Shown here one piece after another: positions 20,121-43,493 of a stretch of DNA of 64,000 nucleotides. Positions within the stretch are counted from its first letter, which is position 1. Each line of letters starts with the position of its first letter. The notes below the pieces were generated by a model. The model saw only the letters and a list, made by a program, of their open reading frames with translations, made no database searches and had not been told where the DNA came from. A program made the position numbers and the translations under genes. The stretch is from the NCBI GenBank assembly GCA_030602585.1, contig JAUVZJ010000005.1:973-64972 (forward strand), read 5' to 3'. This DNA is from Candidatus Methanophagales archaeon (GTDB lineage: Archaea; Halobacteriota; Syntropharchaeia; Alkanophagales; Methanospirareceae).

Positions 20121-20245
20121 ATGACATCGAGCACTAACCATATCTGGAATAGGAACAAAGAGAGCGGAAATAAAAGCACAATACAAAAAGTTTATCGGGA
20201 GGAAAATTCTATTTATTATTATCTCTTCTCTCATCTTAATTTTTG
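20121..20245 (+). pseudogene. BtuC-type permease N-terminal stub (frameshifted)
   Basis: About 85% nucleotide identity to the 5' end of the gene at 42396 ([29 protein letters not shown] across a frameshift). It runs directly into the truncated ABC ATPase. Confidence 0.6.
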
Positions 20246-21178
20246 AGACCAACTTCTGGAACTGCTTTAATCAATGGATTTGACATAATCAAAGAACCTG
20301 ACAAGGTAAGGAAATCAATTGGGATTGTTTTTCAAGATCCGAGTTCCGACGACGACCTCACAGCTTATGAAAACATGGAGTTCCACGCCATGATATATGA
20401 TATTCCCGTGGAAAGAGCGAATATATTAGAGCTTTTGAGGCTGGTTGAGCTTGATGACAAGGCAGACAGCTTTGTCAAGACTTTTTCTGGAGGCATGAAA
20501 CGGAGGTTAGAGCTCACACGTGGTTTATTGCATCATCCAAAGGTATTGTTTCTGGATGAGCCTACTTTGGGCTTGGACACGCAGACGAGACGCAAAATCT
20601 GGGACTATATACGTGAAATAGCGAACGAAAAAGAAATGACGATCATTCTCACAACTCACTACATGGAAGAAGCTGATAGCATTTGTGACAGAATAGCAAT
20701 AATAGATGAAGGTAAAATAAAGGCGGTTGGCAGCCCGAAGGAGATGAAAAACAATTTGAACGATTATAAATTTATTATAAAACTCATTAAAAACTATGAT
20801 TATTTAGTGTTCGAGAAGGAACTTGAAAGAAGCATTAAGCGTAGAGAACTTGGGGTTGATATAACGGATGTCAATATAACTCAAAACAATGCTGGGAATG
20901 GAGTTAGCGCTAACGAAGTTGTGTTGGAAATCGACCTGAGAATCAATAACGAAAGTAAAAACTCCGATGCTTTACTGATAGATGCTCTTATTTCAGTCAA
21001 AGATGCCTTAAAAGAGTTCAAAAACTTCGAGATAACCACTATTGATTTACACAAACCAACCTTAGATGATGTTTTTATACACAATACGGGTAAAACACTC
21101 CGAGATGAGAGGGCACCACCGGATCGTAGATTGCGAATGGTTGCGAGCAAAATGACATCCGGAGTGAGAATAAGATAA
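20243..21178 (+). pseudogene. ABC-2 exporter ATPase lacking N-terminus and Walker A
   Basis: Begins at the equivalent of residue ~73 (PTSGTALINGFD...) with only a TTG start. Signature FSGGMKRR and Walker B LFLDEPT are present. Confidence 0.65.
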
Positions 21179-21179
21179 G

Positions 21180-22189
21180 ATGGTAAATATAAAGGCGATC
21201 TATATCATTTGGCTGCGGGGAATAAAGTTGTCTTCGAGATATAAGGTAGGTTTCATTAGTCATTTGGGGCAGCCACTACTTTGGCTGCTTCTCCTGGGTA
21301 CAGGGCTTAGAGGCTCGGTACGCATGGGTAGTATGGGTTTAGCGGAGTCAACGGGATAGATTACATGACTTTTATGTTACCTGGAATAATAGGAATGAGC
21401 CTCCTCTTTTCCTCGATGATGGGCGGAATGAGAATTTTGTGGGACAAGAAATTTGGATTTTTAAAAGAGATGATGGTGGCGCCTATATCTACCTGAATTT
21501 TAGCGATTATAGGCACCATGTACAAATTTATCAATCTCCAACGCTTTCATAAGTAATAATCGCTTCTTAGTAGCTCTTTATTTTGGTGCGTATGAATGAC
21601 ATGGTGCCTAATAGGCACTATATCATATAAATAGTTTGCGTAATTATCGCCTTATTGGTGATAATAACGCAGGTATGCAGAGATTCAAGGCATGGTGCCT
21701 ATAAAGCCAAAAATTCAGGTATCTAGAGTAAGTATAGTATTGGGAAATAACTTCAGCATTGCCACAATCTCAATTCTGCAGGGAATCATTATAATATTAT
21801 TGGCACCATTGATAGGTGTTGATTTAAACTTATTCTACATACCAATTGCTTTGTTATTCATTTTAATGATTGGATTAACTTTTACAAGTGTTGGTATAGT
21901 ACTATCAACGCAAATGGAGGACATGGGCTCGTTTCAAGGCATACAAACATTCTTGACTCTTCCTCTTTTCCTTTTATCAAGCGCATTTTTCCCCGTAACT
22001 AAACTGCCCTATCCAATCCAAATAATAGCTTACTTTAACCCTCTGTTCTACGGAGTTGATGGTTTGCATGGTGCATTAATCGGCGTATCTGCACTGCCGA
22101 TGTGGTTCGACCTTTTGGCAGTAACCGCATTCTGTGCTGGTTTAATATTGTTGAGCGCTTATCTATTCAATAAAAGAGAGGGGATATAA
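21180..22189 (+). pseudogene. ABC-2 permease disrupted by a MITE insertion and frameshifts
   Basis: N-terminal half (MVNIKAIYIIWLRG...LPGIIGMSLLF...LKEMMVAPIS) is in broken frames before 21492. The C-terminal half 21692-22189 reads through from an ATG supplied by the MITE end. Confidence 0.65.
21492..21719. mobile_element. MITE-like internal-deletion derivative of the IS at 17935-19648, with 6-bp target-site duplication TATCTA
   Basis: About 75 bp matching the IS left end plus ~150 bp matching the IS right end (~90% identity). Direct repeats tatcta flank it at 21486-21491 and 21720-21725. Confidence 0.8.
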
Positions 22190-22219
22190 AATGAGCAAGA
22201 TGCACTAAGAATGTCTATC

Positions 22220-22324
22220 GGTGTTGTTTTTCCAGATCCCAGTGTAAACACGGAATTAACAGGTAGAGAAAACTTGGATTTTATTGCCAGAATGTACAAA
22301 AAGCTCGCCCATTCCTAAAACATG
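22220..22324 (+). pseudogene. short ABC ATPase internal fragment
   Basis: MSIGVVFPDPSVNTELTGRENLDFIARMYKK matches the Q-loop region of ABC-2 ATPases (compare SIGIVFQDPSSDDDLTAYENMEFHAMIYD). Confidence 0.5.
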
Positions 22325-22578
22325 CTGCATCCACCTTTCATCCCATCCAGATGGAAACTCAGAAATCCTAATGTGGAATTTTTCCACACTTTATTGGATT
22401 TTTTAACATCTTCTATTTTTTTGTTATCTCTTTTTATTTATTATTTGGATAGTTCGATGTATAGAGTCATATTAAAAGATTTTCGGTTTTATTAAAATCA
22501 TACATATTTATATATTGGAATACAAAAAGCATAAAAAAAGGAATTTTGTAAGAATAAAAGGAAGGTGATTAAAAAGAG

Positions 22579-25151: not shown

Positions 25152-26369
25152 ATGAAGAAAGTGTTAGCTTGTATGTTGGTAGTGATGCTTCTTGCATCGT
25201 GTTTGTCGATGGCGGTTGTGCCTGTGAGTGCGCAAGACAGTGTGCCTTCCACTGATGAAGAAATAGAAGAAGTAGCGAGGGCTGTGCTTTCCAATGAAAT
25301 CATGCTGTATCTTAGAGCAACATATTTTGGTGAAGGAATAAATCATCTTTCATTAGAAGAACTGAGGGAATCGGCGAGTTATTATCCGCAGTATCCACGA
25401 CAGATTACGGATTCTGCTGATAGAACGGTGACGATATACAAGCCGGTGGAAAGAATTATTCTCCAACCCACAGCGTCATATGAACCAGTTTGGGTCATTG
25501 GAGCACAAGATAAAGTCGTGGGTGTGACCACAACTGCACTGAAGGAGGAAGACTATTCATGGCTTCCAGGAATCCAAGATAAGCCACCTGTTGGCGCCTA
25601 CAAAGAGCTTGATTACGAGAAGATAATGGAACTCGAGCCGGATATTGTAATAAGTAGTAAGAGTAAAGCAGAGGAGACGAGTGAAAAATTAGAGCCGGCT
25701 GGTATAACAGTAGTTGCACTGAACTTCGTTGAGATAGAAAAGTTTGATTCCGAGCTTAAAATCCTCGCAAAAATACTTGGAAAAGACGAAAAAGCGGAAG
25801 AGTTCATCTCGTGGAGACAAAACCATTTTGATCTGATAAAAGAGAGAACAGAAGGAATAGAACCAAAGGTGCGAGTTTATGTTGAATATCCTGGTACGCT
25901 CTGGGGAACCGGTGGAGAAGGTTCAAGCGGACACTCTGTGATAACAACTGCGGGTGGTTATAACATCGCTGGTGATGAGGTCGGATATTTTGGCTATGTT
26001 GATCAAGAATGGGTCGCTAAAGAGAATCCAGAGGTAATATTCTTTCCAGCATTTGCTGAGTTTGGACAGACGGCTCTCACTGGATACTTCATGGATAGCC
26101 ATGAAAATGCGGAGCAATTTATAGAGGAGGCATGCAATCGAACAGGTCTAAAGGAGACAGATGCAGTAAGCAATGGCAGTGTCTATGTAATCGATGGCTG
26201 TAGTACGTTAGCAGCATGCAGAAGTATCATTGCAGCTCTCTATTGCGCCAAGTGGTTCTACCCCAAACAATTTGAGGACTTAGAGCCGGAGAAAATTCAC
26301 AGGGAATACTTTGAAGAATGGCTCGACGTGGAATATAAAGGAATATGGGTTTATCCGCTATTAGATTAA
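25152..26369 (+). CDS. ABC substrate-binding protein, FecB/BtuF-like paralog
   Basis: ITDSADRTVTIYKPVERIIL...VIGAQDKVVGVT. Close paralog of 29771-30997. Confidence 0.75.
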   Translation: MKKVLACMLVVMLLASCLSMAVVPVSAQDSVPSTDEEIEEVARAVLSNEIMLYLRATYFGEGINHLSLEELRESASYYPQYPRQITDSADRTVTIYKPVERIILQPTASYEPVWVIGAQDKVVGVTTTALKEEDYSWLPGIQDKPPVGAYKELDYEKIMELEPDIVISSKSKAEETSEKLEPAGITVVALNFVEIEKFDSELKILAKILGKDEKAEEFISWRQNHFDLIKERTEGIEPKVRVYVEYPGTLWGTGGEGSSGHSVITTAGGYNIAGDEVGYFGYVDQEWVAKENPEVIFFPAFAEFGQTALTGYFMDSHENAEQFIEEACNRTGLKETDAVSNGSVYVIDGCSTLAACRSIIAALYCAKWFYPKQFEDLEPEKIHREYFEEWLDVEYKGIWVYPLLD

Positions 26370-26536
26370 AAACATGAAAGCAGTGGAGAACACAGGAACA
26401 ACAAAAAGTAAAAAGTTTATTAGGAGGGAGGTCCTTTTGTTTCTTCCTCGCTTTTTTATTTCAAAAAAGAGGGAATTAGGTTCAAATATGTGCAAGAGGG
26501 CAATATCTCAGGAGTATTTCTCTTCTTTTAAATGAG

Positions 26537-27016
26537 ATGGAACGAGTGGCAAAATATGCTGTGGATATAGGATTTTACTGCAACTTCTTCCCTTATCCGA
26601 AAGGTTTTAGTATAAATGCTGCCTTAACCAGACAAGAATATCACCGTGCCATAGAAAATATCGAATCTCTCATTGAAAAGTATCCAAAAAAGGTGTTTAT
26701 AGACTTCCCCCTTGCTGGAGCAACGAATAGGTCGTTGAGAAACATCTGTCCGGCAGTTTTTATTAGCTCACATATTGATGTAGATGGACATCTTAGACTT
26801 TGTAAGTACTCTTCAAAGAAGATTGGATCACTTGAGGAATCATCTTTGATCGATCTTTGGAACAAACAAAGGAATGAAGTGAAAAAGCTGAACCACCTTA
26901 GCTCAAACTGTGAGTTATATCCTGATTGTGGAGGAGGTTGCTTAGCTAATAAAACTGAATATGGTATAGACTATTATTGCCTGAGGTATGCAAATGAACG
27001 AAATAATCAAGGCTGA
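26537..27016 (+). CDS. SPASM/twitch-domain fragment of a radical-SAM maturase (N-terminal radical-SAM core absent)
   Basis: C-terminal Cys pattern LRLCKYS...DLWN...CELYPDCGGGCLANK is typical of SPASM domains. The in-frame upstream stop at 26528 leaves no CX3CX2C region. Confidence 0.5.
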   Translation: MERVAKYAVDIGFYCNFFPYPKGFSINAALTRQEYHRAIENIESLIEKYPKKVFIDFPLAGATNRSLRNICPAVFISSHIDVDGHLRLCKYSSKKIGSLEESSLIDLWNKQRNEVKKLNHLSSNCELYPDCGGGCLANKTEYGIDYYCLRYANERNNQG

Positions 27017-27929
27017 ACACCTGGAAAAGGTATTTGGAGACCAGAAAGCCGTAGATAATCTCTCCTTTACTGTTCACAGAGGTGAGACTTTAGGGTTGCT
27101 CGGACCCAACGGTGCTGGAAAGACAACGACGATTAAGATGTTGATAGGACTCATCAAGCCAACAAGAGGCGGAGCAATTATCGGTGGATATGATGTCCAG
27201 GAAAACCCAATAGAAGTGAAGGAATTATTTGGCATATCTCCACAGGAGCTCAGCTTCGACCATCATCTCAGCCTGATAGAGGATTTGTATTTCTATGTGA
27301 GGCTCTATGGTTTATCGAGAAAAGAAGCGAAAGAAAGAGTAAAGGAGACATTAAAATGGGCAAGATTAGAAAACCATGCTGAAAAGATAGGCTATCAACT
27401 CTCTGGCGGGATGCAGCGCAGATTGCTTATGGCAAGGGCAATGGTCACAGATCCCCCAATTCTGTTCTTGGACGAGCCAACGACTGGTCTCGACCCCCAA
27501 GCTCGGCATGCTTTATGGGATTACATTTTGGACTTAAAAGAAAGAGGAAAGACGATCATTTTAACCACGCATTATCTTGAGGAGGCGGAAATGCTGTGTG
27601 ACCGGGTGATTATCATTGATTACGGCAAAAAAATCGCAGAAGGCACGCCTGATGAGCTTAAGCATATCCTCAAGGTAGAGAATATAGTTACCATAAAGCC
27701 CAGGAATTCAATCAGCCAGAGAGTCATAGAAGAAATCAAGGAATTTACAGGCGTTGAAGACGCTATCTGGCATGATAGCTCGCTAAAAATATATCTAAAA
27801 GATGAATATGTGTTAGAGTTGATTATAAGTCTAATTTTAACGGATGCGGGAATTTTAGAAATGGACATCAAAAGAGCGAGCTTAGAAGATGTGTTTTTAC
27901 ATTTAACTGGAAAGGAGCTGAGGGAATGA
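26988..27929 (+). CDS. ABC-2 type exporter ATPase
   Basis: Walker A GPNGAGKTT, signature LSGGMQRR, Walker B LFLDEPTTGLD. Confidence 0.8.
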   Translation: MQMNEIIKAEHLEKVFGDQKAVDNLSFTVHRGETLGLLGPNGAGKTTTIKMLIGLIKPTRGGAIIGGYDVQENPIEVKELFGISPQELSFDHHLSLIEDLYFYVRLYGLSRKEAKERVKETLKWARLENHAEKIGYQLSGGMQRRLLMARAMVTDPPILFLDEPTTGLDPQARHALWDYILDLKERGKTIILTTHYLEEAEMLCDRVIIIDYGKKIAEGTPDELKHILKVENIVTIKPRNSISQRVIEEIKEFTGVEDAIWHDSSLKIYLKDEYVLELIISLILTDAGILEMDIKRASLEDVFLHLTGKELRE

Positions 27930-28681
27930 AAATGATAAGAGCTCTCAAGGCGATTACCATTACATTTGAGCGTGAGTTGTATGACTTTTACAAGAACCTC
28001 TTTCACTACTCGCTCAGGAGCTTGCTAACTCCAACATTGTACCTCTTAGTTATTGGTATTGGATTGGGGTCAATGGTTGACATGTCAGATGATGTCTCCT
28101 ACATACAATTCTTAATTCCAGGTATCTTAATGATGACCACAGCACAGGTGACACACCTTCACCTCGGCTTTGAAGTTTTGGCTGCGAGAACCTATGAAAA
28201 GTACCTGGAGCTGCTAACCATGGTCGCACCAATTCGTCCTTATGAAGCTGTCATAGGTTATATACTCACAGGGGTTATGATTGCCATTTTTAACGTGATA
28301 ATTTTTCTTATCCCCATATACATTTTCTTCCACACAATCTTTGTATCGCTTCCTCTTCTATTACTCTTTACCGTCGGCTTGGGCATCTTATTCTCAGCAA
28401 CAGGCTTCTCCGCTGGTATATACTTTGATGATCCACACCATATGAGCATCGTAAATTCACTTGTCATAACGCCCCTCTCTTTTCTATGTGGTGTCTTCTT
28501 CCCTCTCGATCTCTATCCAGAGCAAATTCGGCTTTTAGTAGAACTCGTTCCTCTCACCCAGGCAATTGAAGGTCTGCGTGGTAATGGTATTCTCTTATTC
28601 CAAGTTGGGTATGTGTGGCTAACAGCGATAATAGCTGTTGTTTTAGCCATAGTAATCTTTAAAAGAAAGATGATAATATGA
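27926..28681 (+). CDS. ABC-2 family permease
   Basis: 6 TM segments, coupled to the 26988 ATPase. Its 3' end is duplicated at 31133-31343. Confidence 0.7.
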   Translation: MKMIRALKAITITFERELYDFYKNLFHYSLRSLLTPTLYLLVIGIGLGSMVDMSDDVSYIQFLIPGILMMTTAQVTHLHLGFEVLAARTYEKYLELLTMVAPIRPYEAVIGYILTGVMIAIFNVIIFLIPIYIFFHTIFVSLPLLLLFTVGLGILFSATGFSAGIYFDDPHHMSIVNSLVITPLSFLCGVFFPLDLYPEQIRLLVELVPLTQAIEGLRGNGILLFQVGYVWLTAIIAVVLAIVIFKRKMII

Positions 28682-28794
28682 GGATGTGGGTAATGAAAGA
28701 CATTCTGAAGTTGGGGGTGTTAGATTTAAGAAAAGGATACTGATTTAAAGTTTAATTATAGGAAACACCAAACAATTTTGTGAAGTGAAGACCT

Positions 28795-29049
28795 ATGAAA
28801 TCGATAAGCATACCCGAGGATGTATTAATCTCGATAAAAATACCCGAGAAGGATATGGAACAGGAATTAAAGCGGGAATTAGCCACCGCTCTATACCAAA
28901 GGGGGGTTATTTCACTGGGTAAAGCGAGAAAATTAGCTGGGATGAGCAAATGGGAATTTATAGAGGAATTAGGGAAAAGAAAAATCGAAAGGCATTACAC
29001 AGAAAGAGAATTGGAGGAGGACTTAGCCTTTGCCAAAAGTGGTAAGTAA
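28795..29049 (+). CDS. UPF0175-family antitoxin
   Basis: 84 aa (LISIKIPEKDMEQELKRELATALYQRGVISLGKARKLAGMS). Overlaps the downstream DUF3368-like ORF. Confidence 0.6.
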   Translation: MKSISIPEDVLISIKIPEKDMEQELKRELATALYQRGVISLGKARKLAGMSKWEFIEELGKRKIERHYTERELEEDLAFAKSGK

Positions 29050-29254
29050 TTCATCGCCTCTGATCCAGTTAGCCAAGATTGGGCAGCTAAACCTATTGAA
29101 ACACTTTTTTAATGAGATAGGTGTTTTAATAAGGGCGAAAGACGAGGGAAAGATAGCAAGTTTAGGAGAGATCTTAGAGAAGCTAAAAGAAACTGGATTC
29201 TGGATAAGTGATGATTTATACACCAAGATTCTGAGAGAAGGCGGGGAGTTATGA
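29030..29254 (+). CDS. DUF3368 (PIN-like) toxin remnant, internally deleted
   Basis: The N-terminus VVSNSSPLIQLAKIGQLNLL has Asn in place of the first catalytic Asp and is joined directly to the C-terminal LIRAKDEGKIASLGEILEKLKETGFWISDDLY segment. The middle ~80 aa are missing. Confidence 0.5.
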   Translation: MPKVVSNSSPLIQLAKIGQLNLLKHFFNEIGVLIRAKDEGKIASLGEILEKLKETGFWISDDLYTKILREGGEL

Positions 29255-29259
29255 GTATA

Positions 29260-29575
29260 TTGATGATGGTAATATAGATGATTCTTGCATGATGCTATGT
29301 TCTGTGGAGTGCCCTCCCAGAAAAGGATATGAAAAATAATATTATGTAACACTTGATTTATCACAAAATCGATAAATGAATTTTCTCTATAATATCAAAA
29401 CCGAAAATATTTTTATTAATTATAACAAGAATTTGTTAATATCTTACATGAAGGACAAGATAAAAACGAAAATATGGGCGATGAAAAGCGGTGGGTGAGG
29501 GAAGGGATATGGCTAAATAGTGCCACTTACGTGATGCAATATGTGGCGAAGGTGGAAGAAGAAGGAGAAAAAGGA
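29260..29575 (+). promoter_or_regulatory. conserved ~320-bp upstream leader (copy 1) with palindrome TTTATCA-N6-GATAAA and TATA-like box
   Basis: About 80% identical to 33489-33815. Palindrome at 29357-29376, ttttattaattataa at 29411-29425. Precedes the binding-protein gene 29771. Confidence 0.5.
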
Positions 29576-29588
29576 GGTGATGTGAAAA

Positions 29589-29774
29589 ATGAGTGCGAAG
29601 CAGTTTGATCAAACTTTCTTAAAGTTTGTTGCGAAACGTTTTGAAGAATGTTTGAAGGATTATGAACACGACCCAAAGGAGTGCACGCCAGAGCAGATAA
29701 GAGAGTGCCATGGCGATATTGAAGTTGAACGACACCCTTGCGGAGCGGGAAAAATGGGGGGTAATGTGAAATGA
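29589..29774 (+). CDS. small Cys4/His protein, hypothetical (possible metal-binding)
   Basis: 61 aa, EEC..KEC..RECHGD..HPC. The stop overlaps the binding-protein start (ATGA). Confidence 0.35.
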   Translation: MSAKQFDQTFLKFVAKRFEECLKDYEHDPKECTPEQIRECHGDIEVERHPCGAGKMGGNVK

Positions 29775-30997
29775 AAACGAAAAGGATAACATCTATTGTA
29801 TTGGTAATGGTGCTTCTTGCATCTGCGTTGCCATTGGTGGTTATGCCCGCGGCTGCACAACAAGCAGGAATACCATGTGATGATGGGAATAATGAATTAA
29901 CGAGAGATGAACTTGTGAATGCAATTCTTCCATACATGCTCGGTGAAGGCTCTCACACTTTAGATGAGGTTAGAGATGCTGCGTGGGTATATGCATATTG
30001 GGATGGAAAGCCGGAAGAGATTACGGATTCTGCTGGTAGAGAGGTGACGATATGCAGACCGGTAGAAAGAATAATTCCTATGTCCTCGTGGTCCTATGAA
30101 CCCATTTGGATCCTCGAAGCACAGGATAAAGTGGTGGGTGTGACCTCAACTCTAAAAGAAAGCGCTGGTGCATGGCTTCTAGGAATCCAGGATAAGCCAA
30201 CCGTTGGCACCTACAAAGAGCTTGATTACGAAAAGGTACTCGAAGTTAACCCACAGATTGTAATCACCGGTTCAAACAAGGCAGAAGAAATTGCAGAAAA
30301 ACTAGCGCCTGCTGGTATAACAGTAGTTGCAATGAGCTTCAGAAGTCAAGAAAAATTCGATAACGATCTTAAAATCCTCGCGAAAATACTGGGGAAAGAT
30401 GAAAGAGCAAGAGAATTCATTTCGTGGAGACAGAATTGTATAGACGAGATCAAAGAAAGAACAGAGGAGTTGGAACCAGAAGAGAAGATAAAGGTGTATG
30501 GTGAAAGTAACGCACGATTCTGGCTTACTCCCACGAAAGATTCGGGCTTCCACGGAGTAATAACAACGGCAGGCGGTAACAACATCGCAGGTGACCTCCC
30601 TGGTAAATATGTCGATGTTGAATCGGAGTGGGTTGTTAATGAAAGTCCTGAGGTAATAGTTATTGCAGCAACAATGAGTGATTGGATTCCTGGTCCCGGT
30701 CTCGATTATTTTGCAGATGAATCTGATATCGCCGACACGAAACAATACTTAGAAGAAACTTACAATCGAACAGGTCTAATGGAGACGGACGCAGCAAAAG
30801 AGGGTCGTGTTTATTTGCTCCATGGCTACGTAGCGGAAGGAGCATGCCGTTCCTTCGTCGGAGTTGGCTATTGCGCCAAGTGGTTCTACCCAGAACAATT
30901 TGAGGACTTGGAACCAGAGGAATATCACAGGGAATACTTTGAAGAATGGCTCGACATGGAATACAAAGGAGTCTGGGCTTATCCGCCAGTGAGTTAG
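29771..30997 (+). CDS. ABC substrate-binding protein, FecB/BtuF-like paralog
   Basis: ITDSAGREVTICRPVERIIP...ILEAQDKVVGVT. Nearly colinear with 25152-26369. Confidence 0.75.
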   Translation: MKTKRITSIVLVMVLLASALPLVVMPAAAQQAGIPCDDGNNELTRDELVNAILPYMLGEGSHTLDEVRDAAWVYAYWDGKPEEITDSAGREVTICRPVERIIPMSSWSYEPIWILEAQDKVVGVTSTLKESAGAWLLGIQDKPTVGTYKELDYEKVLEVNPQIVITGSNKAEEIAEKLAPAGITVVAMSFRSQEKFDNDLKILAKILGKDERAREFISWRQNCIDEIKERTEELEPEEKIKVYGESNARFWLTPTKDSGFHGVITTAGGNNIAGDLPGKYVDVESEWVVNESPEVIVIAATMSDWIPGPGLDYFADESDIADTKQYLEETYNRTGLMETDAAKEGRVYLLHGYVAEGACRSFVGVGYCAKWFYPEQFEDLEPEEYHREYFEEWLDMEYKGVWAYPPVS

Positions 30998-31132
30998 ACG
31001 CAGGGAAAGGTCGCAAACCAAAATCGTAAAAGTAGGGAGGAGGGAGAAAGCGTTCCTTCTCCATTCATTTTTTCCCCCGGAAGAATTTGTGGAGTTCTAT
31101 CTTAAGCCTGAACGGAAAATGAAGAGATGTTA

Positions 31133-31770: not shown

Positions 31771-31863
31771 ATGGTATCAAGCACAGATACAATACCCGGA
31801 ACAGAAACAGAAAACGCGAAAATAAAAGAGACAACACGAAAAACAAGAAAATTTTGTTAGGGT
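31771..31863 (+). pseudogene. BtuC-type permease N-terminal stub
   Basis: MVSSTDTIPGTETENAKIKETTRKTRKF matches [25 protein letters not shown] of 42396. A stop falls before TM1. Confidence 0.45.
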
Positions 31864-31959
31864 AAAGTTTTTTATTTTCCTCTCATTTCTATTCTTTATC
31901 GTACTTGAGGACAAAAGGTAAAATGAGCATTTTGGTACAGGTAAACAAAACAGGAAAAA

Positions 31960-32385
31960 TTATTCCGGTGTAACAACCTCCAAAAAATCAACCCTGTCAA
32001 AGTCCGGGTCAAATGTGGCAATTTTTCTTATTCCATAATGTTTGCAGGTGGCAGCAATAAGGGCATCATTTGGAAGTAAGCCATATTTCTTGATGAGCCC
32101 CTCCGCTCCACTTTTGACAGCCTCACCGACATCAAGCGTCCTGTATCTTCCCAGTAGCTCCACGATATCATTGAGTTCAACGGACTTCACGAGCTCAGGC
32201 TGCTTCTTCAATTCGTAGGACTTCTTTCCTGTTTCCGCCTTAATATAGACGAACAAGACTTCCGAAAAGACAATATCATTGATACACCCTTCGAGACCAG
32301 AATACTCCTCAAGAAGTGTTTTTGCCTTTTCTTTCCCTTCTAAGAAGTCCAGGAAGACACTTGAGTCAATAAATACCCCATTCAT
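31960..32385 (-). CDS. vapC: PIN-domain toxin VapC
   Basis: FIDSSV (Asp7), [11 protein letters not shown] and FDPDF acidic residues. Confidence 0.75.
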
Positions 32386-32554
32386 CTTCGGTTTCCTCTA
32401 AGAGCTTCAACAAATCCTTTCCACGGAAAATCCCGAAAAGCTTCTCCGGAAACTTTTTTATATCGACCTTTATCTTTTCCCCTTCTTTTAAGTCCACCTT
32501 CTCCAAAGGCTTAAACACTCCCTTTTCGTACACAACCTCAATTGTCTTTTGCAT
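32366..32554 (-). CDS. vapB: VapB-type antitoxin (AF2212/DUF104-like)
   Basis: [20 protein letters not shown]... Overlaps vapC. Confidence 0.6.
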
Positions 32555-33080: not shown

Positions 33081-33135
33081 CTGGCAGCTCCTCCTTACTA
33101 CTATTGGTTGTTGGATATAAAAATACTTTTTCTTC

Positions 33136-33489: not shown

Positions 33490-33815
33490 GATTGATGATA
33501 GTAATATAAATGACTTTGTATGATGCTATGTTCTGGAATGCCCTCCCGGAAAAGGATATGAAAAATAATATTATGTAACACCTAATTTATCACAAAATTG
33601 ATAAATGATTTTTCTCTATAACACCAAAACCGAAAATTTTTTTATTAATTATAATAAAAATCTGTTAATGTCTTACATAGAGTTAAGATAAAGAGGGAAG
33701 ATAGGAGGGATAGGGAATAAAAAAGGAATGGCTAAGAGGAGAGAGATGGGTATATGGCGCTCCTTGCGTGATGCGATATGGGGCGAAGGTGAAAGAAGAA
33801 GGGGGGCGATAAAAA
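33489..33815 (+). promoter_or_regulatory. conserved ~320-bp upstream leader (copy 2)
   Basis: Palindrome tttatcacaaaattgataaa at 33586-33605, TATA-like tttttattaattataa ~33639-33655. Precedes the binding-protein gene 33909. Confidence 0.5.
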
Positions 33816-33908
33816 GATGAGAAAAGGAAAGGGAATAGTAGAAAGCGTGAATACACTTTCTTTTAGAAAAAGAACCTGTGCTAAGAAAACAATAGGAGGT
33901 GGTGAGGA

Positions 33909-35152
33909 ATGAGGATGGTATTATCTATTGTATTGGTGATGGTGCTTCTTGCATCTGCGGTGCCGACGGCGGTTGTGCCGGCGGCTGCAAATCCAGCAGG
34001 AATATCTAGAGAATACAAGGAACTATTCGAAGGAGACAACGAACTGACGAGGGACGAACTTGTAGAGGCAATAGTTTCTCATATGCTCGAAGAAGGAAGT
34101 GCTTTACAAATAGACGAGTTGAGAGATGCTGCTCATGTCTATGTATATTGGGACGGGGAGCCGAAGACGATTACGGAATTTGCTAATCCCCCAAGAACGG
34201 TGACGATATACAAGCCGATAAAGAGGATAGTTCCCCTGACTACCGAAGCTACTGAAGCAATACGCACACTTGGAGCTACCGATAAAGTAGTCGGCGTTAG
34301 TAAATATGTCATAGGGGATGAGTTGTTCTACCCGGAATTTAGTGATTATCCTAACCTTGATAGCCCATGGACAGACCTCGGAGTACTAGCAGAACGATTA
34401 TTAGAGTGCAATTCCGATGTGGTCCTCACGTATACAAAATATCCTACACCACCTGCTCTTGAAGAGAAGCTCGAAGGCACCGGCATCACAGTGATTCGTT
34501 TTGATTTCAGCAAGCCTTCAAATTTTGTTGAAGAGGTAAACAACCTTGGTTACATCCTCGAGAAGGAGGATGAAGCCAACGAATTCATAGATTTTTACAG
34601 TAACTATATGGACGAAATAAGTGATGCGGTAGAAACGGGAGATAAACCAAAAGTTTACCTCGAAGCTGACTTCGGGAGTGGTCATGAGAAGTACTATACC
34701 TGCGGTGAAGGGCATGGGCATCATGAACTGATTGTATTAGCTGGTGGTAATAATATCTTTGCTGATGTTAGCTATGGCGGAGAAATAGGTGTAGAAGATG
34801 TGATGGATCGAGACCCTGAGATTATAATCAAGTATAAATGGCCTGCTGGTGGTTTTGATGGGGATATAGAAGAGTTGAAAGCGATAAGAGAAGAGATATT
34901 GGGGCGAGAAGAGTTGCAGGATGAACCCGCGGTGAAGAATGAGACTGTATATGTATTCACATGGTATAACGTGGAGGTGCAAGGTATTTTCTGGGCATGG
35001 GCTATCTAGCGAGGTGGTTCCATCCGGGATTAGATATTGACCCACAGGGAATTTATCAAAAATATCTAACAGACTTCCAAGGACTGAATATTGATTTGGA
35101 TAATGCTGCACTCGTGTATCCCGAAAAGCCAGTTTGTGACGAACCAGCATGA
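33909..35152 (+). pseudogene. FecB/BtuF-like substrate-binding protein with a frameshift near 34990
   Basis: ORF 33909-35009 ends ...VQGIFWAWAI. The conserved C-terminus GYLARWFHPGLDIDPQGIYQKYLTDF...ALVYPE continues in the +2 frame to the stop at 35150-35152. Confidence 0.65.
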
Positions 35153-35285
35153 AAGCACCGAGACAATACTGGGAACACGAACAAAAGCGGAAATAAAAAG
35201 TAATACGAAAAATAAGAAAAATTTGCAGAGAGGGAGATACATTTTCTATTTTCTCCCTTTTTGTTCTCTATTTATAATAAAATAA
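35136..35285 (+). pseudogene. BtuC-type permease N-terminal stub
   Basis: (V)TNQHESTETILGTRTKAEIK...YIFYFLPFCSLFIIK then a stop after TM1. The same frame as ORF 35091-35285. Confidence 0.5.
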
Positions 35286-35313
35286 GGGCATAAAATAAGA
35301 AGAGGTATGAAAA

Positions 35314-36906
35314 ATGAGGGTAACAGCAATAACATGGGGAAGTGATATGGCATTGCTCGTCAATGCATGCAAGGAGCTTGGAATAGAGTTAGACGCGTGG
35401 TCTACACATGATGTGGAAGAAGAGAAGGAGCGAAGGGAGTGCATAAAATCTTTTGAGCAGGCGGACATCGTCCTCTTACATCCGTCAAATGAGGAATATT
35501 GGGATGAGATAGTTGAGAGACGGAATAAAGATATGCCAACGATCTCTTTTGGGCATGATTCATCCTTCTGGTGGCTTTCAAACGTTCCCTTAGAGGTTGT
35601 TGCAACGGTCAATGCCTACCATGTATACGGAGGGGCAGAGAACATAACGAATATGCTCAGGTACATCGGAAAAGAGGTCTTAGGTCTGGATTATAAATAC
35701 GAGAATCCAAAGGAGACGATGTGGCAGGGAATATATCATCCGGATGCCGAAACTGCTTTCGAGAGCATAGAGGACTATTTCGCATGGCATAAACCTTCGC
35801 ACAAACACAAAGTTGGCATTCTCTTCTTTCGTACATATTGGGCAAACAGAGACCTTGAGATCGTGAATGCACTAATTCGTGAATTGGAAAACGAGTTTGA
35901 TGTAATTCCAGCCTTCTGCTATGGACTGGGTGATAAAGAATTAGGTGCTAAATCGAGCGGTGAAGTCATTGAAGCATTCTTCATTAACAGGATTGATGCA
36001 CTCATAAACCTTCAATCTGTCTTTCATGCTGGAAGCAATGAAGGCTCTGTCAATGCACTGAAAAAACTCGATGTCCCGGTATTCCACCCACTAATGGCAT
36101 ACTACAATACAGAAGAAGAATGGAGAGCGGATACTCAAGGAATAAGCAGCATGGAGGTTGGCTGGAGTGTTGCGATGCCAGAATTAGAGGGCGTAATCGA
36201 ACCGATAATTATCGGAGCATCAAGAAGAGATAGCGATAATGATTTTGAGCGACATACGCAGATAGATGAAAGGGCGAAAAAGATTGTGAATAGGGTGAAG
36301 AGATGGATAGAGCTAAAAGATAAACCTAAATCCAAAAGAAGAGTTGCATTTATCCTCCATAACACTCCCTGTGCAAGCGTTGAGGCAACAGTAGGAAGCG
36401 GTTCACATCTTGATACCCTGGAGAGTGTAGCAAGGATACTGAAACAGATGAAAGATGCAGGATATTCGGTTGATACGCCTAAGGACGGCGAAGAGCTTGT
36501 AGAGACCATCATGGATCGCAAAGCAATTTCTGAGTTCCGATGGACAACTGTGGATGAAATCGTAAGTAAAGGTGGTGCACTTGCGCTGATAAGCAAGGCG
36601 GATTATGAAATGTGGTTTGATACCTTTGACCAAAGAGTGAAGGAAAGGACGTGTGAAGCATGGGGAAATCCGCCTGGCGAAGAAAAGAATGGTGTCCCCG
36701 CAGCAATGGTTTACAATGGTAAAATCGTGGTAACAGGCGTTCGATATGGAAACGCAGTGGTGTGCGTTCAGCCGAAGCGAGGCTGTGCTGGTTCAAGATG
36801 CGATGGGCAGGTCTGCAAGATACTTCACGACCCTGAAGTGCCTCCTCCTCATCAATACCTCGCAAAACCTATCATTACCTGGAAACTACCTTCGGTGCAG
36901 ACGTGA
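35314..36906 (+). CDS. cobN: CobN/ChlH-family chelatase large subunit, N-terminal part (gene split by frameshift)
   Basis: CobN-like throughout, ending ...PPPHQYLAK then out of frame. An A4 run at 36864-36867 is the likely indel site. Confidence 0.7.
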   Translation: MRVTAITWGSDMALLVNACKELGIELDAWSTHDVEEEKERRECIKSFEQADIVLLHPSNEEYWDEIVERRNKDMPTISFGHDSSFWWLSNVPLEVVATVNAYHVYGGAENITNMLRYIGKEVLGLDYKYENPKETMWQGIYHPDAETAFESIEDYFAWHKPSHKHKVGILFFRTYWANRDLEIVNALIRELENEFDVIPAFCYGLGDKELGAKSSGEVIEAFFINRIDALINLQSVFHAGSNEGSVNALKKLDVPVFHPLMAYYNTEEEWRADTQGISSMEVGWSVAMPELEGVIEPIIIGASRRDSDNDFERHTQIDERAKKIVNRVKRWIELKDKPKSKRRVAFILHNTPCASVEATVGSGSHLDTLESVARILKQMKDAGYSVDTPKDGEELVETIMDRKAISEFRWTTVDEIVSKGGALALISKADYEMWFDTFDQRVKERTCEAWGNPPGEEKNGVPAAMVYNGKIVVTGVRYGNAVVCVQPKRGCAGSRCDGQVCKILHDPEVPPPHQYLAKPIITWKLPSVQT

Positions 36907-39074
36907 TTATCCATGTAGGAACGCATGGAAACCTGGAATTTTTGCCTGGTAAATCTGTTGCACTTTCAGAAAGCTGTTACCCCGATATAGCTATCGGAAA
37001 TCTGCCTCATCTATACATATATAATTCTGATAATCCCCCGGAAGGGACAATTGCAAAGAGAAGAAGTTATGCAACGCTCATAGACCACATGCAAACCGTT
37101 ATGACAGAAAGTGGTTTGTATGGTGACTTAAAGGAGCTTGAAGACCTTATCGCAGAATATAACAAGACAAAAACATCGGATAAGGCAAGGGCACATGCCC
37201 TGGAGCACATTATTATTGATTTGATAAGGAAAACGAAACTATCAGAAGAGATAAAGCTTGATAAAAAGTTAGAGAGTGGGCATTCCTTTGAGAAAATAAT
37301 AGACATTGCACATGAGGCTATCACTCGCATATACAACACGCAGATTCCTGATGGTATGCATATCTTCGGTGAAGTTCCAGAAGGTGATAAGAAGGTTGAG
37401 TTCATCAACTCGATACTGAGACATGATTCAGAGCTAAGGAAATTGATTTTCGAGCTTATGGGACTCGATATTCAGCCTTCAGAGGCGGAAAGCGAGTTTT
37501 TAGCCGAGGTGGATAGTATTGCAAAGGAATTTATTTCCGCTTTCTTGGCTGAAGAAGAGCATTTAGAAGCAGCGAAGGGGATATTGGGCGATAGATTGAA
37601 GATAAAAGATGAGAATAAGCTTTCTCTGATGAGAGAAAAGGTAATGGATATTTCTTCAAGGATAGAAGCATCGGATGAGATGGGAAGTTTGTTTCACGGA
37701 TTCGATGCAGGATATATCGAACCAGGACCTTCGGGGCTCATAACAAGGGGTAAGCCAGAGATACTACCAACAGGCAGGAACTTTTATTCCCTCGACCCTT
37801 TCAAGATTCCAACAAAGGCTGCATGGGAGATTGGTAAGCGACTTGCGGATGGCGTGATAAGGAAATATGAAGAGGAGAACGAAAAGCTTCCCGAAAACAT
37901 CGCGATGTACTGGATGGCATCCGATATCATGTGGTCAGATGGAGAGCAGTTCGCACAGATATTGCATCTAATCGGCGTAGAGCCTGTCTGGAAAGATGGA
38001 AGGGTAAAAGGATACCGGATAATTCCTTTGGAAGAGCTCGGTCGCCCCAGAATAGATGTCACGGTAAGAGTGAGTGGGATTACGAGAGATTGCTTTTACA
38101 ATTGCATCGAACTTTTAGACGAGGCGATACATGAGGTTGCAATGCTTGACGAGCCCATGGAAAAGAACTATTTGAGAAAGCATGTATCGGCATTGGGGAA
38201 CGTGCGTGAAAATACAAATGAAAATGGGACTGAATTTGCGCGTATATTCGCAAGTAAGCTTGGAACTTACGGGAATGGTGTAAATTTAGCGGTATATGCA
38301 TCGGCATGGAAAGAGGAGAAGGATTTGTCGGATGTGTTTGTGCATTGGAACGGGTATGCCTACGGGAAAAACAATTTTGGTGTTGAAGCGCATGATAGTT
38401 TTGTATCACAGCTTAAAACCGTTGATTTGACTTTCAATAAGACGGTTACAGATGAATACGACCTGTGCGGCTGTTGTTGCTACTTTGGAACGCACGGTGG
38501 ACTCACAACTGCTGCACGAGAGATCTCTGGACACGATGTTTCAGCATATTATGGCGATACGAGAGACCAGAATAAGATAGAAGTAAGAAGCCTTGCAGAC
38601 GAGATGAGAAGAATTGTTCGTTCCAAGTTACTAAATCCAAAGTGGATAGAAGGGATGAAACGTCATGGATACAAGGGTGCAGGGGACATATCAAAACGAA
38701 TAGGAAGAGTTTACGGTTGGGAAGCGACAACGCAGGAGGTAGACGACTGGATATTTGATGACATTGCAAGGACGTTCGTTTTAGATAAAGAAATGAGAGA
38801 GTTCTTTGAGGAGACTAATCCATGGGCGCTTGAGGAGATTGGAAGGAGGTTGTTGGAAGCTTATGAGCGCGGATTATGGGATGCAGACGAAGAAGTGATT
38901 GAAGGATTGAAGAGCGCATACCTTGAGATGGAAGGGTGGATAGAAGAGAAGATGGGCGATGCGAAAGGAGATTTTCAAGGAGGGGCGATAGATGTGATGA
39001 CGATGGAGGATGTCGAGGCATTGGCGGCTAAGATGAAAGACAAGCAGAAGGAGTGGAAAAAGTCGCTTCTTTAA
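36903..39074 (+). CDS. cobN: CobN/ChlH-family chelatase large subunit, C-terminal part
   Basis: The +2 frame from ~36866 reads KTYHYLETTFGADVIIHVGTHGNLEFLPGK, the CobN signature. It continues for 723 aa. Confidence 0.7.
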   Translation: MIIHVGTHGNLEFLPGKSVALSESCYPDIAIGNLPHLYIYNSDNPPEGTIAKRRSYATLIDHMQTVMTESGLYGDLKELEDLIAEYNKTKTSDKARAHALEHIIIDLIRKTKLSEEIKLDKKLESGHSFEKIIDIAHEAITRIYNTQIPDGMHIFGEVPEGDKKVEFINSILRHDSELRKLIFELMGLDIQPSEAESEFLAEVDSIAKEFISAFLAEEEHLEAAKGILGDRLKIKDENKLSLMREKVMDISSRIEASDEMGSLFHGFDAGYIEPGPSGLITRGKPEILPTGRNFYSLDPFKIPTKAAWEIGKRLADGVIRKYEEENEKLPENIAMYWMASDIMWSDGEQFAQILHLIGVEPVWKDGRVKGYRIIPLEELGRPRIDVTVRVSGITRDCFYNCIELLDEAIHEVAMLDEPMEKNYLRKHVSALGNVRENTNENGTEFARIFASKLGTYGNGVNLAVYASAWKEEKDLSDVFVHWNGYAYGKNNFGVEAHDSFVSQLKTVDLTFNKTVTDEYDLCGCCCYFGTHGGLTTAAREISGHDVSAYYGDTRDQNKIEVRSLADEMRRIVRSKLLNPKWIEGMKRHGYKGAGDISKRIGRVYGWEATTQEVDDWIFDDIARTFVLDKEMREFFEETNPWALEEIGRRLLEAYERGLWDADEEVIEGLKSAYLEMEGWIEEKMGDAKGDFQGGAIDVMTMEDVEALAAKMKDKQKEWKKSLL

Positions 39075-40143: not shown

Positions 40144-40323
40144 AATTATTTTCTTACAAAATTCTTTTATTTTATGCTTTTCGTATCTCAATATATATAA
40201 ATATATATGCTTTTAATAAAACCAAAAATCTTTTAATATGATTATGCACATCAAATTAAATGTTATTATATTATCTCAAATGGTTAAAAACAAAGAAGGA
40301 AAAAAAGGAAAGGGTGAGAAAAA

Positions 40324-42399
40324 ATGACATACCACATTAGAAGGGAGATATTGCCATTTACAGCAATTGTAGGGCAGGAGAAGATGAAGAAGGCGCTTAT
40401 TTTGAACGCTATTAACCCGCGTATAGGCGGAGTGCTTATAAGGGGCGAGAAAGGAACGGCGAAGTCCACTGCCGTTCGAGCTCTTGCAGAACTGTTACCA
40501 GAAATCGAGGTGGTTAACGGCTGTCCGTTCAATTGCAATCCTTATGACGAGGGGGAGATGTGCGACCTATGCTATGCGGAAAAAACGAATGGTGAAAATC
40601 TGGAAGCGGCGAAGCGAAGGATGTGGGTCATAGACCTTCCGTTAGGTGCTACCGAGGACAGGGTCGTGGGTTCAATAGACGTTGAAAAGGCAATAAAACA
40701 GGGAATAAAGGCGCTGGAGCCGGGGATATTGGCTGCTGCAAATAGGGGTATTCTCTATATTGACGAGGTAAACCTTCTTGATGACCACGTTGCAGACGTC
40801 ATTTTAGATTCGGCTGCGATGTCAATAAACGTTGTCGAGCGAGAAGGTGTCTCGGTTTCTCATCCATCCAAGTTCATCTTGGTGGGAACGATGAACCCTG
40901 AGGAAGGCGAGCTCAGACCTCAACTTCTGGATAGATTTGGTCTTCAAGCGAGTGTAGAAAGTATAGACGATGCAGAGAAAAGGGTAGAAATAGTGAAGCT
41001 GGTAGAAGGTTTTGAAAGGGACCCGGGAGAGTTCGAAGAGCGATTCGAGGAAAAACAAAAAGAGTTGAGAGAGAAAATTGTGCAAGCGAAACAAATAGTT
41101 AATGAGGTGGAGATTAGCGATGATTTACTGAATCTAACTGCAGATACCTGCATAAAACTCGGCGTCAGGACACACAGAGCTGAAATCGTTATAACCAGAG
41201 CGGCAAAAACGATTGCTGCATTTGATAGCAGAAAGAAAGTCACTTTTGAGGACATAAAAGAGGCGATGGAATTAGCACTTCCGCACAGAATGCGCAGAAA
41301 GCCTTTTGACCCACCAAGTTTGGATACTGAAAAACTCGATGATATGATGTCGGACACAAAAGAGCAGCATAAAGGTGAGAAACAAGAGAATGAGCAAGAG
41401 CAAAGGAAAGAACACGAACATAAACACACCCCCACAAATCCAGAAAGTGAAGATGCTAACAACAATGATGCTGTGAAAGAAACAGAACCACAGAAGGAGT
41501 TTGTTTTTGACATAGGCGACCCGATTGATACCGGAGTAGTAAGGCAAAAACAAAAGAAAGACAGAACATATCGCAGGAAGATTTCCGGAAGAAGAATACC
41601 CACACTCTCTCTTCGTAATAACGGGAAGTATGTGCGCTGTGGATTCCCGAAGGGAGAAATAAAGGACGTTGCACTTGATGCTACGATACGTGCAGCGGCA
41701 CCTTACCAGAAAGAGAGAATGGTTGATTCAGACTTAGCTGTTGTTATCAAAACTCAAGATATTCGAGAGAAGATTCGTGTAGGAAAGGTGTCAACAGCAA
41801 CGATGTTTGTTGTGGATGCCTCTGGTTCAATGGGTGCGAATCGAAGGATGGAGAGTGCAAAAGGTGCTGTTCTCTCTTTATTACTGGATTCGTATCAACA
41901 AAGAGACAAAGTTGGAATGGTTGCGTTTAGAGGTGATCAGGCAGATGTTTTGCTTCCTCTATGTTCAAGCGTAGATTTAGCATATAAAAGCTTGAAGGAA
42001 CTCCCAACTGGCGGAAGAACACCTCTATCAGCAGGTCTGGAAAGGGGATTTAATCTTCTGATGAATGAAAAGCAGAAGGACGAAGGAGCGATACCCGTGC
42101 TGGTGTTAATATCTGACGGTCGTGCAAATGTTTCATCTTCAAATAAAGATATTAAAGTGGAGTTGTTAGCGCTCGCTGAGCAGGCGCGTGCTAAGGGTAT
42201 ACATGTGATTGTGATTGATACCGAAGTAATTAATAAATCGTTCATACAAATGCAGCTTGGATATTGCAGAGATATAGCGAGCTATTCCGGGGGAAAATAT
42301 TATTCCATCGTTGATTTGACATCACAAGCAGTGCATGATATTGTGATTCAGGAGCGAGAGCGAAGTTTATCGAATGATTTGCAGGCTGTTTTGGGATGA
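40324..42399 (+). CDS. Mg-chelatase-type ChlI/ChlD fusion: AAA+ ATPase plus C-terminal von Willebrand A (MIDAS) domain
   Basis: Walker [10 protein letters not shown], ChlI core, acidic linker, and vWA domain [10 protein letters not shown]...LISDGRAN. Confidence 0.8.
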
Positions 42400-43493
42400 A
42401 AATGACGTCAAGCACTGAGACCATATCAGGAACGAGAACAAAGAGCGCCGAAATAAAAGAGCAATACAAAAAGTTTATCGGAAGGAAAATTCTATTTATC
42501 CTTTTTTCCCTCATCCTAATTTTTATTATCGCAGGCATAGCTGCAACACTTGGCTCTTATCCTATCACAGTCACTGAGGTCTACTCAATAATATGGCAGG
42601 GTCTATTTCAAAATCCGGAAACGACAAAAGAGATTGTCGTCTGGAACTTGAGATTGCCACGCATCATAATGGGTATTTTAGCTGGCATAGGGCTTGCAAT
42701 TGCAGGCACGATGATGCAAGGTATTTTAAGAAACCCACTTGCAAGCCCCTTTACGCTGGGAATCGCATCAGGTGCGGGGTTTGGTGCGGCTCTTGCTATC
42801 CTTTTAGGTGCGGGTATTATCGCTGGTGAGACTGGTAAGTATCTCATCATAGTAAATGCGTTTGCCTTTTCTCTCATTCCCACATTTGTTATCATAGGAT
42901 TGACCCGTTACAAAAGAGCTACGCCTGAGACAATGATTCTCGCTGGTATCGCAATGTTATATATCTTTAGCGCGGCGACGACTTTATTAATGTACTTTGC
43001 CGAATCAGAAGCGGTAAAAGCAGCATATTTCTGGATGGTTGGCAGTCTTGGAAAAGCTTCATGGGATGCCATCCTCCCAGTATCTATCATGCTTGCAGGT
43101 TGTGTTCCCCTGCTTCTGTGGAAGTCATGGGATGTCAACGTAATGGGTGCTGGAGATGAAACTGCAAAAAGCTTGGGCGTAAATGTCGAACGAAGCAGAA
43201 TCCTTATATTGGTTATTGCTTCTTTGATGAGCGCAGGCATTGTTTGCTTCACCGGAACCATTGGATTCATAGGATTGGTTGCCCCACACATGTGCCGCAT
43301 GGTTATCGGTGGTGATAACCGGTTTTTAATTCCTGCTTCCGGTTTTTTTGGTGCCGCCCTTCTACTTGGGGCTGATACCCTCGCAAGAACAATCATAGCA
43401 CCTGTAATCCTCCCGGTAGGAGTCTTGACATCCTTCATGGGAGGTCCTTTATTCCTTTACTTGATAATGAGAAAAAGGAGGGAGTTTTGGTGA
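42396..43493 (+). CDS. btuC: FecCD/BtuC-family ABC permease (intact) with ~30-aa N-terminal extension
   Basis: 10 TM FecCD fold ([24 protein letters not shown]). The N-terminus [25 protein letters not shown] is the sequence recurring as stubs elsewhere. Confidence 0.8.

Follow-up and report, generated by a model that had tools for sequence, protein, structure and literature searches.

Relics of a BtuC-type permease gene behind binding-protein genes of ANME-1 archaea: candidate 3' untranslated regions with U-tract terminators

Intercistronic stem-loops behind binding-protein genes are known from operons of ATP-binding cassette (ABC) importers, where the repetitive extragenic palindromic (REP) elements of the Escherichia coli malE-malF spacer occupy this position. 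In Methanococcus, two U4-tracts constitute the cis-element for efficient aCPSF1-dependent termination (PMC8716108), and terminators located inside operons set the differential expression of the genes upstream and downstream of them (PMC10450193). Here we describe an element that can be compared to both. It was found in a stretch of 64,000 nucleotides (nt) from a Candidatus Methanophagales archaeon (contig JAUVZJ010000005.1, positions 973 to 64,972), which is called the window in the following, and in related genomes of the anaerobic methanotrophic archaea of group 1 (ANME-1). The window contains several copies of the 5' end of a FecCD/BtuC-type permease gene that lack the remainder of the gene. 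Those termed class A look like ordinary wreckage. Those termed class B trail genes of Peripla_BP_2 substrate-binding proteins (SBPs), and we see an even chance that this relic has been co-opted as the 3' untranslated region (3' UTR) and U-tract terminator, or as an operon-internal attenuator, of the SBP genes, both the function and the selection for it being read from sequence comparison.

Archaeal U-tract terminators, which depend on aCPSF1/FttA and have been mapped by Term-seq in Methanococcus maripaludis (PMC8716108, PMC10450193), share with class B the presence of two or more U4+ tracts within about 30 nt downstream of a gene, and also the occasional placement inside an operon, where the flanking genes would need different expression. 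In contrast to those of Methanococcus maripaludis, the ANME-1 tracts lie inside a ~100-nt homolog of a coding 5' end and are preceded by a conserved core, and their role is predicted from sequence. The malE-malF REP elements resemble the stub in their position right after the SBP gene and in the proposed excess or independent expression of the SBP, but the stub differs in origin (a permease relic), in sequence, and in the domain of life, and its hairpin is statistically unsupported. Ordinary pseudogene fragments in DNA containing insertion sequences (IS) are truncated, frameshifted, and found at junctions, as are the class A copies, the nikC and ABC-2 tails, and a split ATPase gene in the window, whereas class B persists beside SBP paralogs of 27-57% identity and surpasses these genes in conservation. 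With the FecCD/BtuC family (PF01032) all copies share homology over the cytoplasmic tail and the first transmembrane helix (TM1), and the stubs end before or just after TM1.

The reference for all copies is the 5' end of the single gene in this set that carries a FecCD domain, a full transmembrane domain of ~310 profile positions. Its segment 42396-42524 encodes the N-terminal extension and TM1, and it is followed by the genes of its ATPase and of a NifH-like protein. The intact BtuC has 7523 homologs, the best of which is 94% identical, and the best homologs all come from ANME-1 metagenomes (Methanophagales / Methanospirareceae). The extension is kept in about 120 intact ANME-1 FecCD permeases; this peptide is a genuine conserved part of the protein, neither a low-complexity artefact nor the result of a mis-called start. 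A preliminary description of this DNA had listed copies of the btuC 5' end at 8870, 20121, 31771, and 35136 besides the intact gene at 42396. An nhmmer profile built from these five copies matched all five sites when run on the window, all on the + strand (42397-42520, E 1e-32; 20118-20237, E 1e-29; 31767-31897, E 2e-24; 35144-35269, E 8e-24; 8874-8977, E 1e-21), and added a sixth, 26374-26457, that was absent from the list. The stubs are thus btuC/FecCD 5' ends sited at junctions, as had been described. They are alignable but diverged, from 82% identity (20118-20244 against 42399-42524) downwards, and so are not exact duplicates of one region. The description had also taken the same stub to be left each time, but the truncation points differ and range from ~85 to ~215 nt. 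The intact gene and the class B sites with their neighbours are:

25152..26369, + strand: Peripla_BP_2 SBP gene with stub 26374 in its 3' flank (PF01497, E 9e-30)
26374..26461, + strand: SBP-trailing stub, class B-like, with an internal deletion of ~24 nt (class B profile, nhmmer E 2.5e-16)
31036..31075, + strand: hairpin and T-run after SBP gene 29771..30997 (terminator-like scan: 10 pairs, tail ATTCATTTTT)
31771..31897, + strand: class B stub, not next to an SBP gene (nhmmer; alignment with the 9-nt duplication)
33909..35154, + strand: Peripla_BP_2 SBP gene with stub 35149 in its 3' flank (PF01497, E 1.7e-25)
35149..35270, + strand: class B stub whose ATG shares an ATGA with the true stop of the preceding SBP gene, at ~35149-35154 (nhmmer; alignment)
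42396..43493, + strand: intact FecCD/BtuC-type permease gene (PF01032, E 3.8e-91, profile positions 3-311 of 311)

A 9-nt in-frame tandem duplication, [AATACGAAA][AATAYGAAA], is seen in the alignment of most class B copies, 31771 and 35136 among them. Every intact gene has a single AATACAAAA instead (at 42463 in the btuC of the window), and none of the nine copies that are intact or of class A has the duplication. A search of 5.8 billion protein clusters gave no intact FecCD protein with a duplicated peptide, and only three open reading frames (ORFs) of 33-52 amino acids (aa) matched. The shared duplication, which intact genes lack, points to one old origin of class B, and the proposal that several paralogs had been deleted independently to leave the same stub is not supported. 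The canonical order of transporter genes is SBP followed by permease, and most simply class B would have arisen once, from a btuC lost directly behind an SBP gene, and would then have spread with the SBP genes. An intact FecCD gene directly after an SBP gene was not seen in ~30 SBP genes inspected.

Outside the window, class B copies stand behind SBP genes in L003, L010, L017, L023, L025, L026, and in the related loci L005, L007, L009, L011, L022, and L024, of which L011 has a second stub site. The element starts at most 10 nt from the SBP stop codon in about 17 of 20 instances and its orientation is always the same. In L017 each of three tandem SBP genes is followed by a stub, in L023 four of five are, and in the arrays of L025 and L026 only the last SBP gene is. 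The gene downstream of the element varies between SBP, methyltransferase, cobN, radical S-adenosylmethionine (SAM) SPASM/ABC-2, and Oxidored_nitro genes. Because the element keeps to the SBP gene in front of it, the cis-element serving btuC, as promoter or 5'-coding regulator, that had been suggested is not supported. A main role as promoter of the downstream gene was rejected likewise, since the neighbour upstream is constant, an SBP gene, and the one downstream changes; a sigma-70 scan stayed below the shuffle expectation, its consensus being irrelevant to archaea. In a pattern scan of metagenomes three of the eight matches were by chance, in unrelated A-rich DNA (L004, L006, L008). A contig search with SBP 33909 returned two loci only, at 42-44% identity and with no stub, and a stub was not found in the SBP arrays of ANME-2d (Methanoperedens), which carry an unrelated hairpin and T-runs after the last SBP gene. 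The tandem arrays themselves (L023 241-7650, L017 1-3600) consist of three to five Peripla_BP_2 genes that are mutually 40-57% identical and separated by intergenic DNA of much higher conservation. In ANME-1, rapid diversification of the SBP family seems to be under way.

Compared to the ~350 aa of intact genes, the open frame downstream of every orphan copy amounts to at most 74 aa. Stops, frameshifts, or lost starts are present in at least half of the copies, and the indels are not multiples of three: 31771 contains an in-frame TAG, 35136 is frameshifted, L017_1 and L017_3 have stops, and the L005 copy (L005a) has an ACG in place of the ATG together with a stop, while L017_2, L023_2, and L023_3 have lost the 5' part. 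Since the frames are broken in so many copies, class B is non-coding. It is barely conceivable that the stubs encode small membrane peptides built from the N-terminal tail and one transmembrane helix. Some copies are open, such as ORF 35091..35285 with 64 aa and 26374 with 53 aa, and gene callers have annotated the ORFs of 33-52 aa in three metagenomes, but the broken copies listed above, with 35136 being shifted relative to its ATG, speak against a peptide. A conserved internal ATG (MKSLL...) was considered as a peptide start and dismissed: its frame is not the ancestral one, 1-nt indels interrupt it, and the copies of the window lack it.

Terminators of this kind are recognised by U4+ tracts shortly after the stop codon (PMC8716108), and the SBP+stub units have such tracts. 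In all of the 14 units a run of at least four Ts starts 65-96 nt after the stop, and in 10 of the 14 there are at least two T4 runs within 30 nt. Six SBP spacers inside arrays that lack a stub contain no T4 run. The mean longest T-run is 6.5 in class B versus 4.9 in intact genes (Mann-Whitney p = 7e-4, not phylogenetically corrected). Both synteny and deletion breakpoints are located just distal to class B stubs. We therefore suggest the following course of events. A btuC gene directly behind a Peripla_BP_2 gene would have been lost once with its 5' relic left in place, and the relic would have been carried along as the SBP genes duplicated and diverged. From the T-rich former TM1 codons, at least two U4+ tracts would come to stand ~65-96 nt behind the SBP stop, often together with a GGAGG/CCUCC hairpin. 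The remaining relic would become a 3' UTR, in which the SBP transcripts would end or be stabilised, and the next gene would be expressed separately.

The copies of the window show how the element is built into its surroundings. Stub 26374 starts 5 nt after the stop of SBP gene 25152. Its hairpin is GGAGGGAGG/CTTCCTC, and T-runs are found at 26435-26438 and 26452-26457; because of its internal deletion it is not scorable for the 9-nt duplication. Its ortholog stands after the last SBP gene of the L025 array (13952-14048) in an SBP+stub alignment of 84.7% identity, in which the hairpin has changed on one side with the pairing kept. A 5.4-kb deletion of the window relative to L025 starts directly after stub 26374, and a breakpoint there is expected if SBP gene and stub form a protected unit. 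The stub listed at 35136 really starts at ~35149 and has the duplication at 35202-35219, a GGGAGA/TCTCCC hairpin (minimum free energy -18.3 kcal/mol, z = -4.4), and T-runs within 35242-35262; a TATA-like TTTATAATAAAATAA and the start of cobN at 35314 follow. In 31771 the duplication is found at 31833-31850 and runs of T6 and T4 at 31868-31878. Upstream of it there is a copy of an ABC-2 permease tail (31139-31362, 94.6% identical to 28477-28700). The nikB remnant that had been placed next to this stub is only weakly supported, the weak nikB-like resemblance giving no tblastn match at E<=0.01 and a local alignment score of 39. Finally, the hairpin and T-run at 31036..31075 are in the stub-equivalent position behind their SBP gene but show no detectable homology to the stub, neither nhmmer profile matching there.

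Some observations concern these neighbours only. The 5.4 kb that the window lacks (26462-27016 against L025 14049-19434) contain a cluster of radical-SAM, SPASM, PqqD, and B12-radical-SAM genes resembling those for ribosomally synthesised and post-translationally modified peptides, of which the SPASM ORF 26537..27016 is a leftover, and the ABC-2 pair after it is 95.7% identical to that of L025. The body of SBP 25152 (region 25410-26461) matches the L025 paralog 10304-11249 at 90.7% while its 3' flank matches the last paralog with its stub (13012-14048), which points to a recombinant of two L025 paralogs and to a contraction of the array by recombination between them. SBP 33909 has a frameshift near 35000 (~34995-35154), and its C-terminus ...AKWFHP...LVYPEKPVCDEPA* continues in another frame; cobN (35314-39074) is split by a frameshift into two overlapping ORFs. 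Either both are real pseudogenes or the frameshifts are sequencing errors in the assembled contig. The SBP-SBP spacers inside the arrays of L025 (11260-11337, 12617-12697) and L026 (3859-3939, 5201-5294) share another conserved sequence of ~75 nt with a possible hairpin GAGGATAGA...TCCTATCTC and no T4 run.

Over 45 pairs of SBP+stub units the stub is 67% identical, compared to 43% (aa), 55% (nt), and 41% (third codon positions) for the SBP, and it exceeds the SBP third positions in 44 of the 45 pairs and the whole gene at the nt level in 40. In the comparison of L003 with L009, no segment is better conserved than the stub (82-91%, versus 62-80% in the 3' coding part of the SBP gene), and homology ends directly after it. 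The conservation is position-specific: the block AAGAGCAATACGAAAAAYATGAAAAGTTTGTTRGGAGG and the T-rich segment following it are kept, while the first third varies or is lost. Conservation above that of the adjacent coding DNA makes a retained cis-element, as had been suggested for all stubs, the best reading for the three class B copies of the window; for 8870 and 20121 nothing points to it.

Several points weigh against a co-opted terminator. Conservation is highest in the ~40-nt core AAGAGCAATACGAAAAAYATGAAAAGTTTGTTRGGAGG, which precedes the U-tract and is not accounted for by a plain U-tract terminator. The T-richness comes from the TM1 codons, the runs could have been lengthened by slippage without selection, and T5-T6 is found in intact 5' ends too. 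The element can do without some of its parts, L022_1 having lost the 5' arm of the hairpin and L023_4 having kept only a T/A palindrome, and the stability of the hairpin is not significant against dinucleotide shuffles in 16 of 17 class B regions. The stub identities were obtained with a profile built on overlapping, A-rich sequences and are inflated. The sampled genomes are closely related (their BtuC orthologs are 89-94% identical at the aa level), and units 3 and 5 of L023 are 88% identical in the stub and 75% in the spacer beside SBP genes of only 43% identity. Similarly, the identity between L009 and L011 is only 30-85% inside the SBP gene and rises to 97-100% over its last ~30 nt and beyond. 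Concerted evolution could thus mimic selection.

These points lead to the view that the class B copies are neutral relics, which we hold to be somewhat doubtful. A deletion cannot enter an essential upstream gene, so that a 5' stub would remain, and its apparent conservation would come from its youth, from hitch-hiking with the SBP duplications, and from gene conversion or unequal crossing-over in the tandem arrays. The L023 and L009/L011 comparisons as well as the recombinant SBP 25152 fit such a history; some copies have lost parts, all sampled contigs belong to closely related ANME-1, and the window is full of other fragments (the nikC tail, the ABC-2 permease tail, ATPase pieces, an IS and a derivative of it that resembles a miniature inverted-repeat transposable element, MITE). 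However, a neutral relic would not be expected to keep its ~40-nt core and U-tract in nearly all copies while its 5' third varies or is lost, nor to surpass the SBP third positions in almost every pair, including pairs across genomes. The longer T-runs compared to the intact genes, and the stub standing only after the last SBP gene in L025 and L026, also argue for the terminator.

The strong conservation of the core could also mean that it is a sequence-specific regulatory site derived from coding DNA, being either an RNA or DNA site bound by a regulator or a Shine-Dalgarno-like GGAGG sequestered by CCUCC. The core would then control the expression of the SBP or the transporter, for example by the supply of Ni, Co, or corrinoid. 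Conservation peaks in this core, which includes GGAGG and a direct 9-nt repeat, rather than in the U-tract; alternative U-rich pairings (with the upstream GGAGG or a downstream A-run) are drawable in L023_3, L023_5, and L011b, and a degenerate L025 copy supplies GGAG just upstream of the next SBP start. We nevertheless regard such a site as decidedly unlikely: no candidate regulator gene accompanies the element consistently in the gene tables, the copies 31771 and 35136 of the window are the most diverged ones in the core, and the RNA itself yields no family, consensus fold, covariation, or significant z-scores. A more elaborate version, also unlikely, is that the ~40-nt core (AAGAGCAATACGAAAAAYATGAAAAGTTTGTTRGGAGG and the U-rich arm) is an ANME-1-specific cis-regulatory element born from lost permease coding sequence that controls the expanded family of metal/corrinoid SBPs. 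Possible mechanisms are a bound regulator or a hairpin switching between GGAGG/CCUCC and U-run/A-run pairing, and the core may in addition be a homology tract for the exchange of SBP cassettes.

Folding of the conserved nucleotides into a structured RNA, which had been considered for the stubs, found no support and was rejected. Rfam 15 gave no match at the gathering score in the whole window, and at E<=5 over 26000-36000, which includes the three class B copies, only chance-level matches (E 0.56-3.2), all outside the stubs. For 17 class B copies RNAalifold gave zero pairs and no covariation, although a weak structure could escape given the poor alignment register in the hairpin region. A GGAGG/CCUCC stem is drawable in most class B copies, but only the fold at 35136 (z = -4.4) is significant, the other class B z-scores ranging from -1.3 to +1.4. 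A scan with the intrinsic-terminator consensus flagged only 31036-31062 in the region and found 6 sites where 10.8 were expected. Dyad or operator symmetry in the core was searched for by eye with no convincing case.

The preliminary description had also offered a recombination hotspot. According to this idea the stub is a preferred site at which SBP cassettes and neighbouring operons are exchanged, and we consider it very unlikely. Homology between loci does break at or after the stub, the stub of L023_5 is a mosaic joined within the core (its 5' part like L009, its 3' part like L023_3), and the [SBP-stub]n arrays resemble cassette arrays. However, breakpoints just outside a selected unit are expected without a hotspot, the arrays hold SBP paralogs only, the class A junctions are at different btuC positions (~nt 125 and ~nt 215), and the gene tables show no integrase or site-specific recombinase beside the arrays, only a DDE_Tnp_4 fragment in L017 and L018. 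An integron-like attC site or mobile element was rejected because the gene tables around the arrays show no integrase and SBP paralogs only, and the element has one orientation after the SBP stop; terminal repeats were not formally searched.

The two class A copies have a different history. Their features are:

8870..9086, + strand: class A stub, in-frame btuC 5' end (~70 aa, through TM1) of a diverged paralog (nhmmer E 1e-21)
9087..9189, + strand: duplicated nikC 3' tail fused to stub 8870 (90% identical to 7140-7242, 80% to 14122-14242)
20118..20244, + strand: class A stub, btuC 5' end cut inside TM1 (82% identical to 42399-42524)

The stub at 8870 matches BtuC residues 19-63 at 51% identity and the tail behind it nikC residues 244-280 at 81% (both tblastn), and the fusion to a nikC tail is as had been reported; ORF 8870..9139 has no Pfam match. 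The stub follows the Gate-domain gene 7904..8830, and Gate followed by FecCD is the normal order in L001. A truncation at or before TM1 had been claimed for all stubs. Stub 20121 is cut inside TM1, but the claim does not apply to 8870, which remains in frame to about residue 70, through TM1. In 20121 a 2-nt deletion after AGCACT has put the motif out of frame with its ATG. This copy retains its native upstream intergenic region (19863-20117), and 19863-20244 aligns with L014 13677-13992, an intergenic region and the start of the second FecCD gene there. The homology ends at ~20244 next to an ABC-2-type ATPase gene that is truncated at its 5' end, lacking the first ~50 residues (20246-21106, +). 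We conclude that class A copies look like recent truncated btuC paralogs from rearrangements in an IS-containing, fragment-rich stretch, that is ordinary wreckage with no sign of function. Since the same stretch contains an ABC-2 permease tail (31139-31362) and an ATPase piece (22185-22296), btuC 5' stubs are not the sole recurring debris. The class A junctions may also reflect assembly or sequencing artefacts, the contig being assembled from a metagenome and having frameshifts in cobN and SBP 33909.

Further traces of rearrangement are found around 20121. The missing N-terminal ~80 residues of the ATPase are inverted at 19661-19939 (-) beside an IS, ~30 residues being present in both pieces, so that the split ATPase looks like an IS-linked rearrangement. 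The IS comprises 17934-19648 with a DDE_Tnp_1 transposase gene (17943..19469, -). A MITE-like element of 230 nt at 21491-21719 consists of the two ends of the same IS (83% and 94% identical), and the gene in which it is inserted is uninterrupted in L017 (17390-18055).

The window has a G+C content of 42%, and its part from 8 to 45 kb carries paralogous operons for Ni/Co/corrinoid transport and for chelatases (Pfam-annotated), including nikABCDE-like genes, ABC-2 ATPase/permease pairs, Gate-domain genes, and a ChlI/D-VWA gene; four Peripla_BP_2 SBP genes start at 23949, 25152, 29771, and 33909. The SBP_bac_5 gene 9382..12417 (1011 aa) contains an internal tandem duplication (9492-10931 against 10962-12413, 75.5% identical) and encodes a double binding protein. 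In the fragment-rich stretch, a PIN-domain gene at 31960-32385 (-, E 2.4e-24) may form a toxin-antitoxin pair with the small ORF upstream of it, 32366..32554 (-). Short non-coding repeats comprise an inverted pair (22450-22554 against 40258-40151, 85%) and the direct pairs 29259-29565 against 33491-33802 and 32456-32606 against 32982-33130 (81-82%), one of which is located upstream of two SBP genes.

The element is confined to a single lineage and of kinds already known, being a gene relic and a U-tract terminator or 3' UTR, and its wider impact is limited since U-tract termination has been described before. The T-runs of the intact btuC in the window are at 42502-42507 and 42520-42524, and T5-T6 runs are also present in the TM1 codons of other intact btuC 5' ends. 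If such tracts terminate transcription there as well, the expression of the permease could be attenuated inside its own operon. If the co-option of class B is true, the first 100 bases of a dead gene have been reused as the end signal of the upstream neighbour and been copied through the expansion of a gene family. The element would then help to annotate the small spurious ORFs that are called at stub sites, and it would be a sequence marker for the boundaries of transcription units in ANME-1, a lineage of uncultured methane oxidisers for which hardly any regulatory elements are known.

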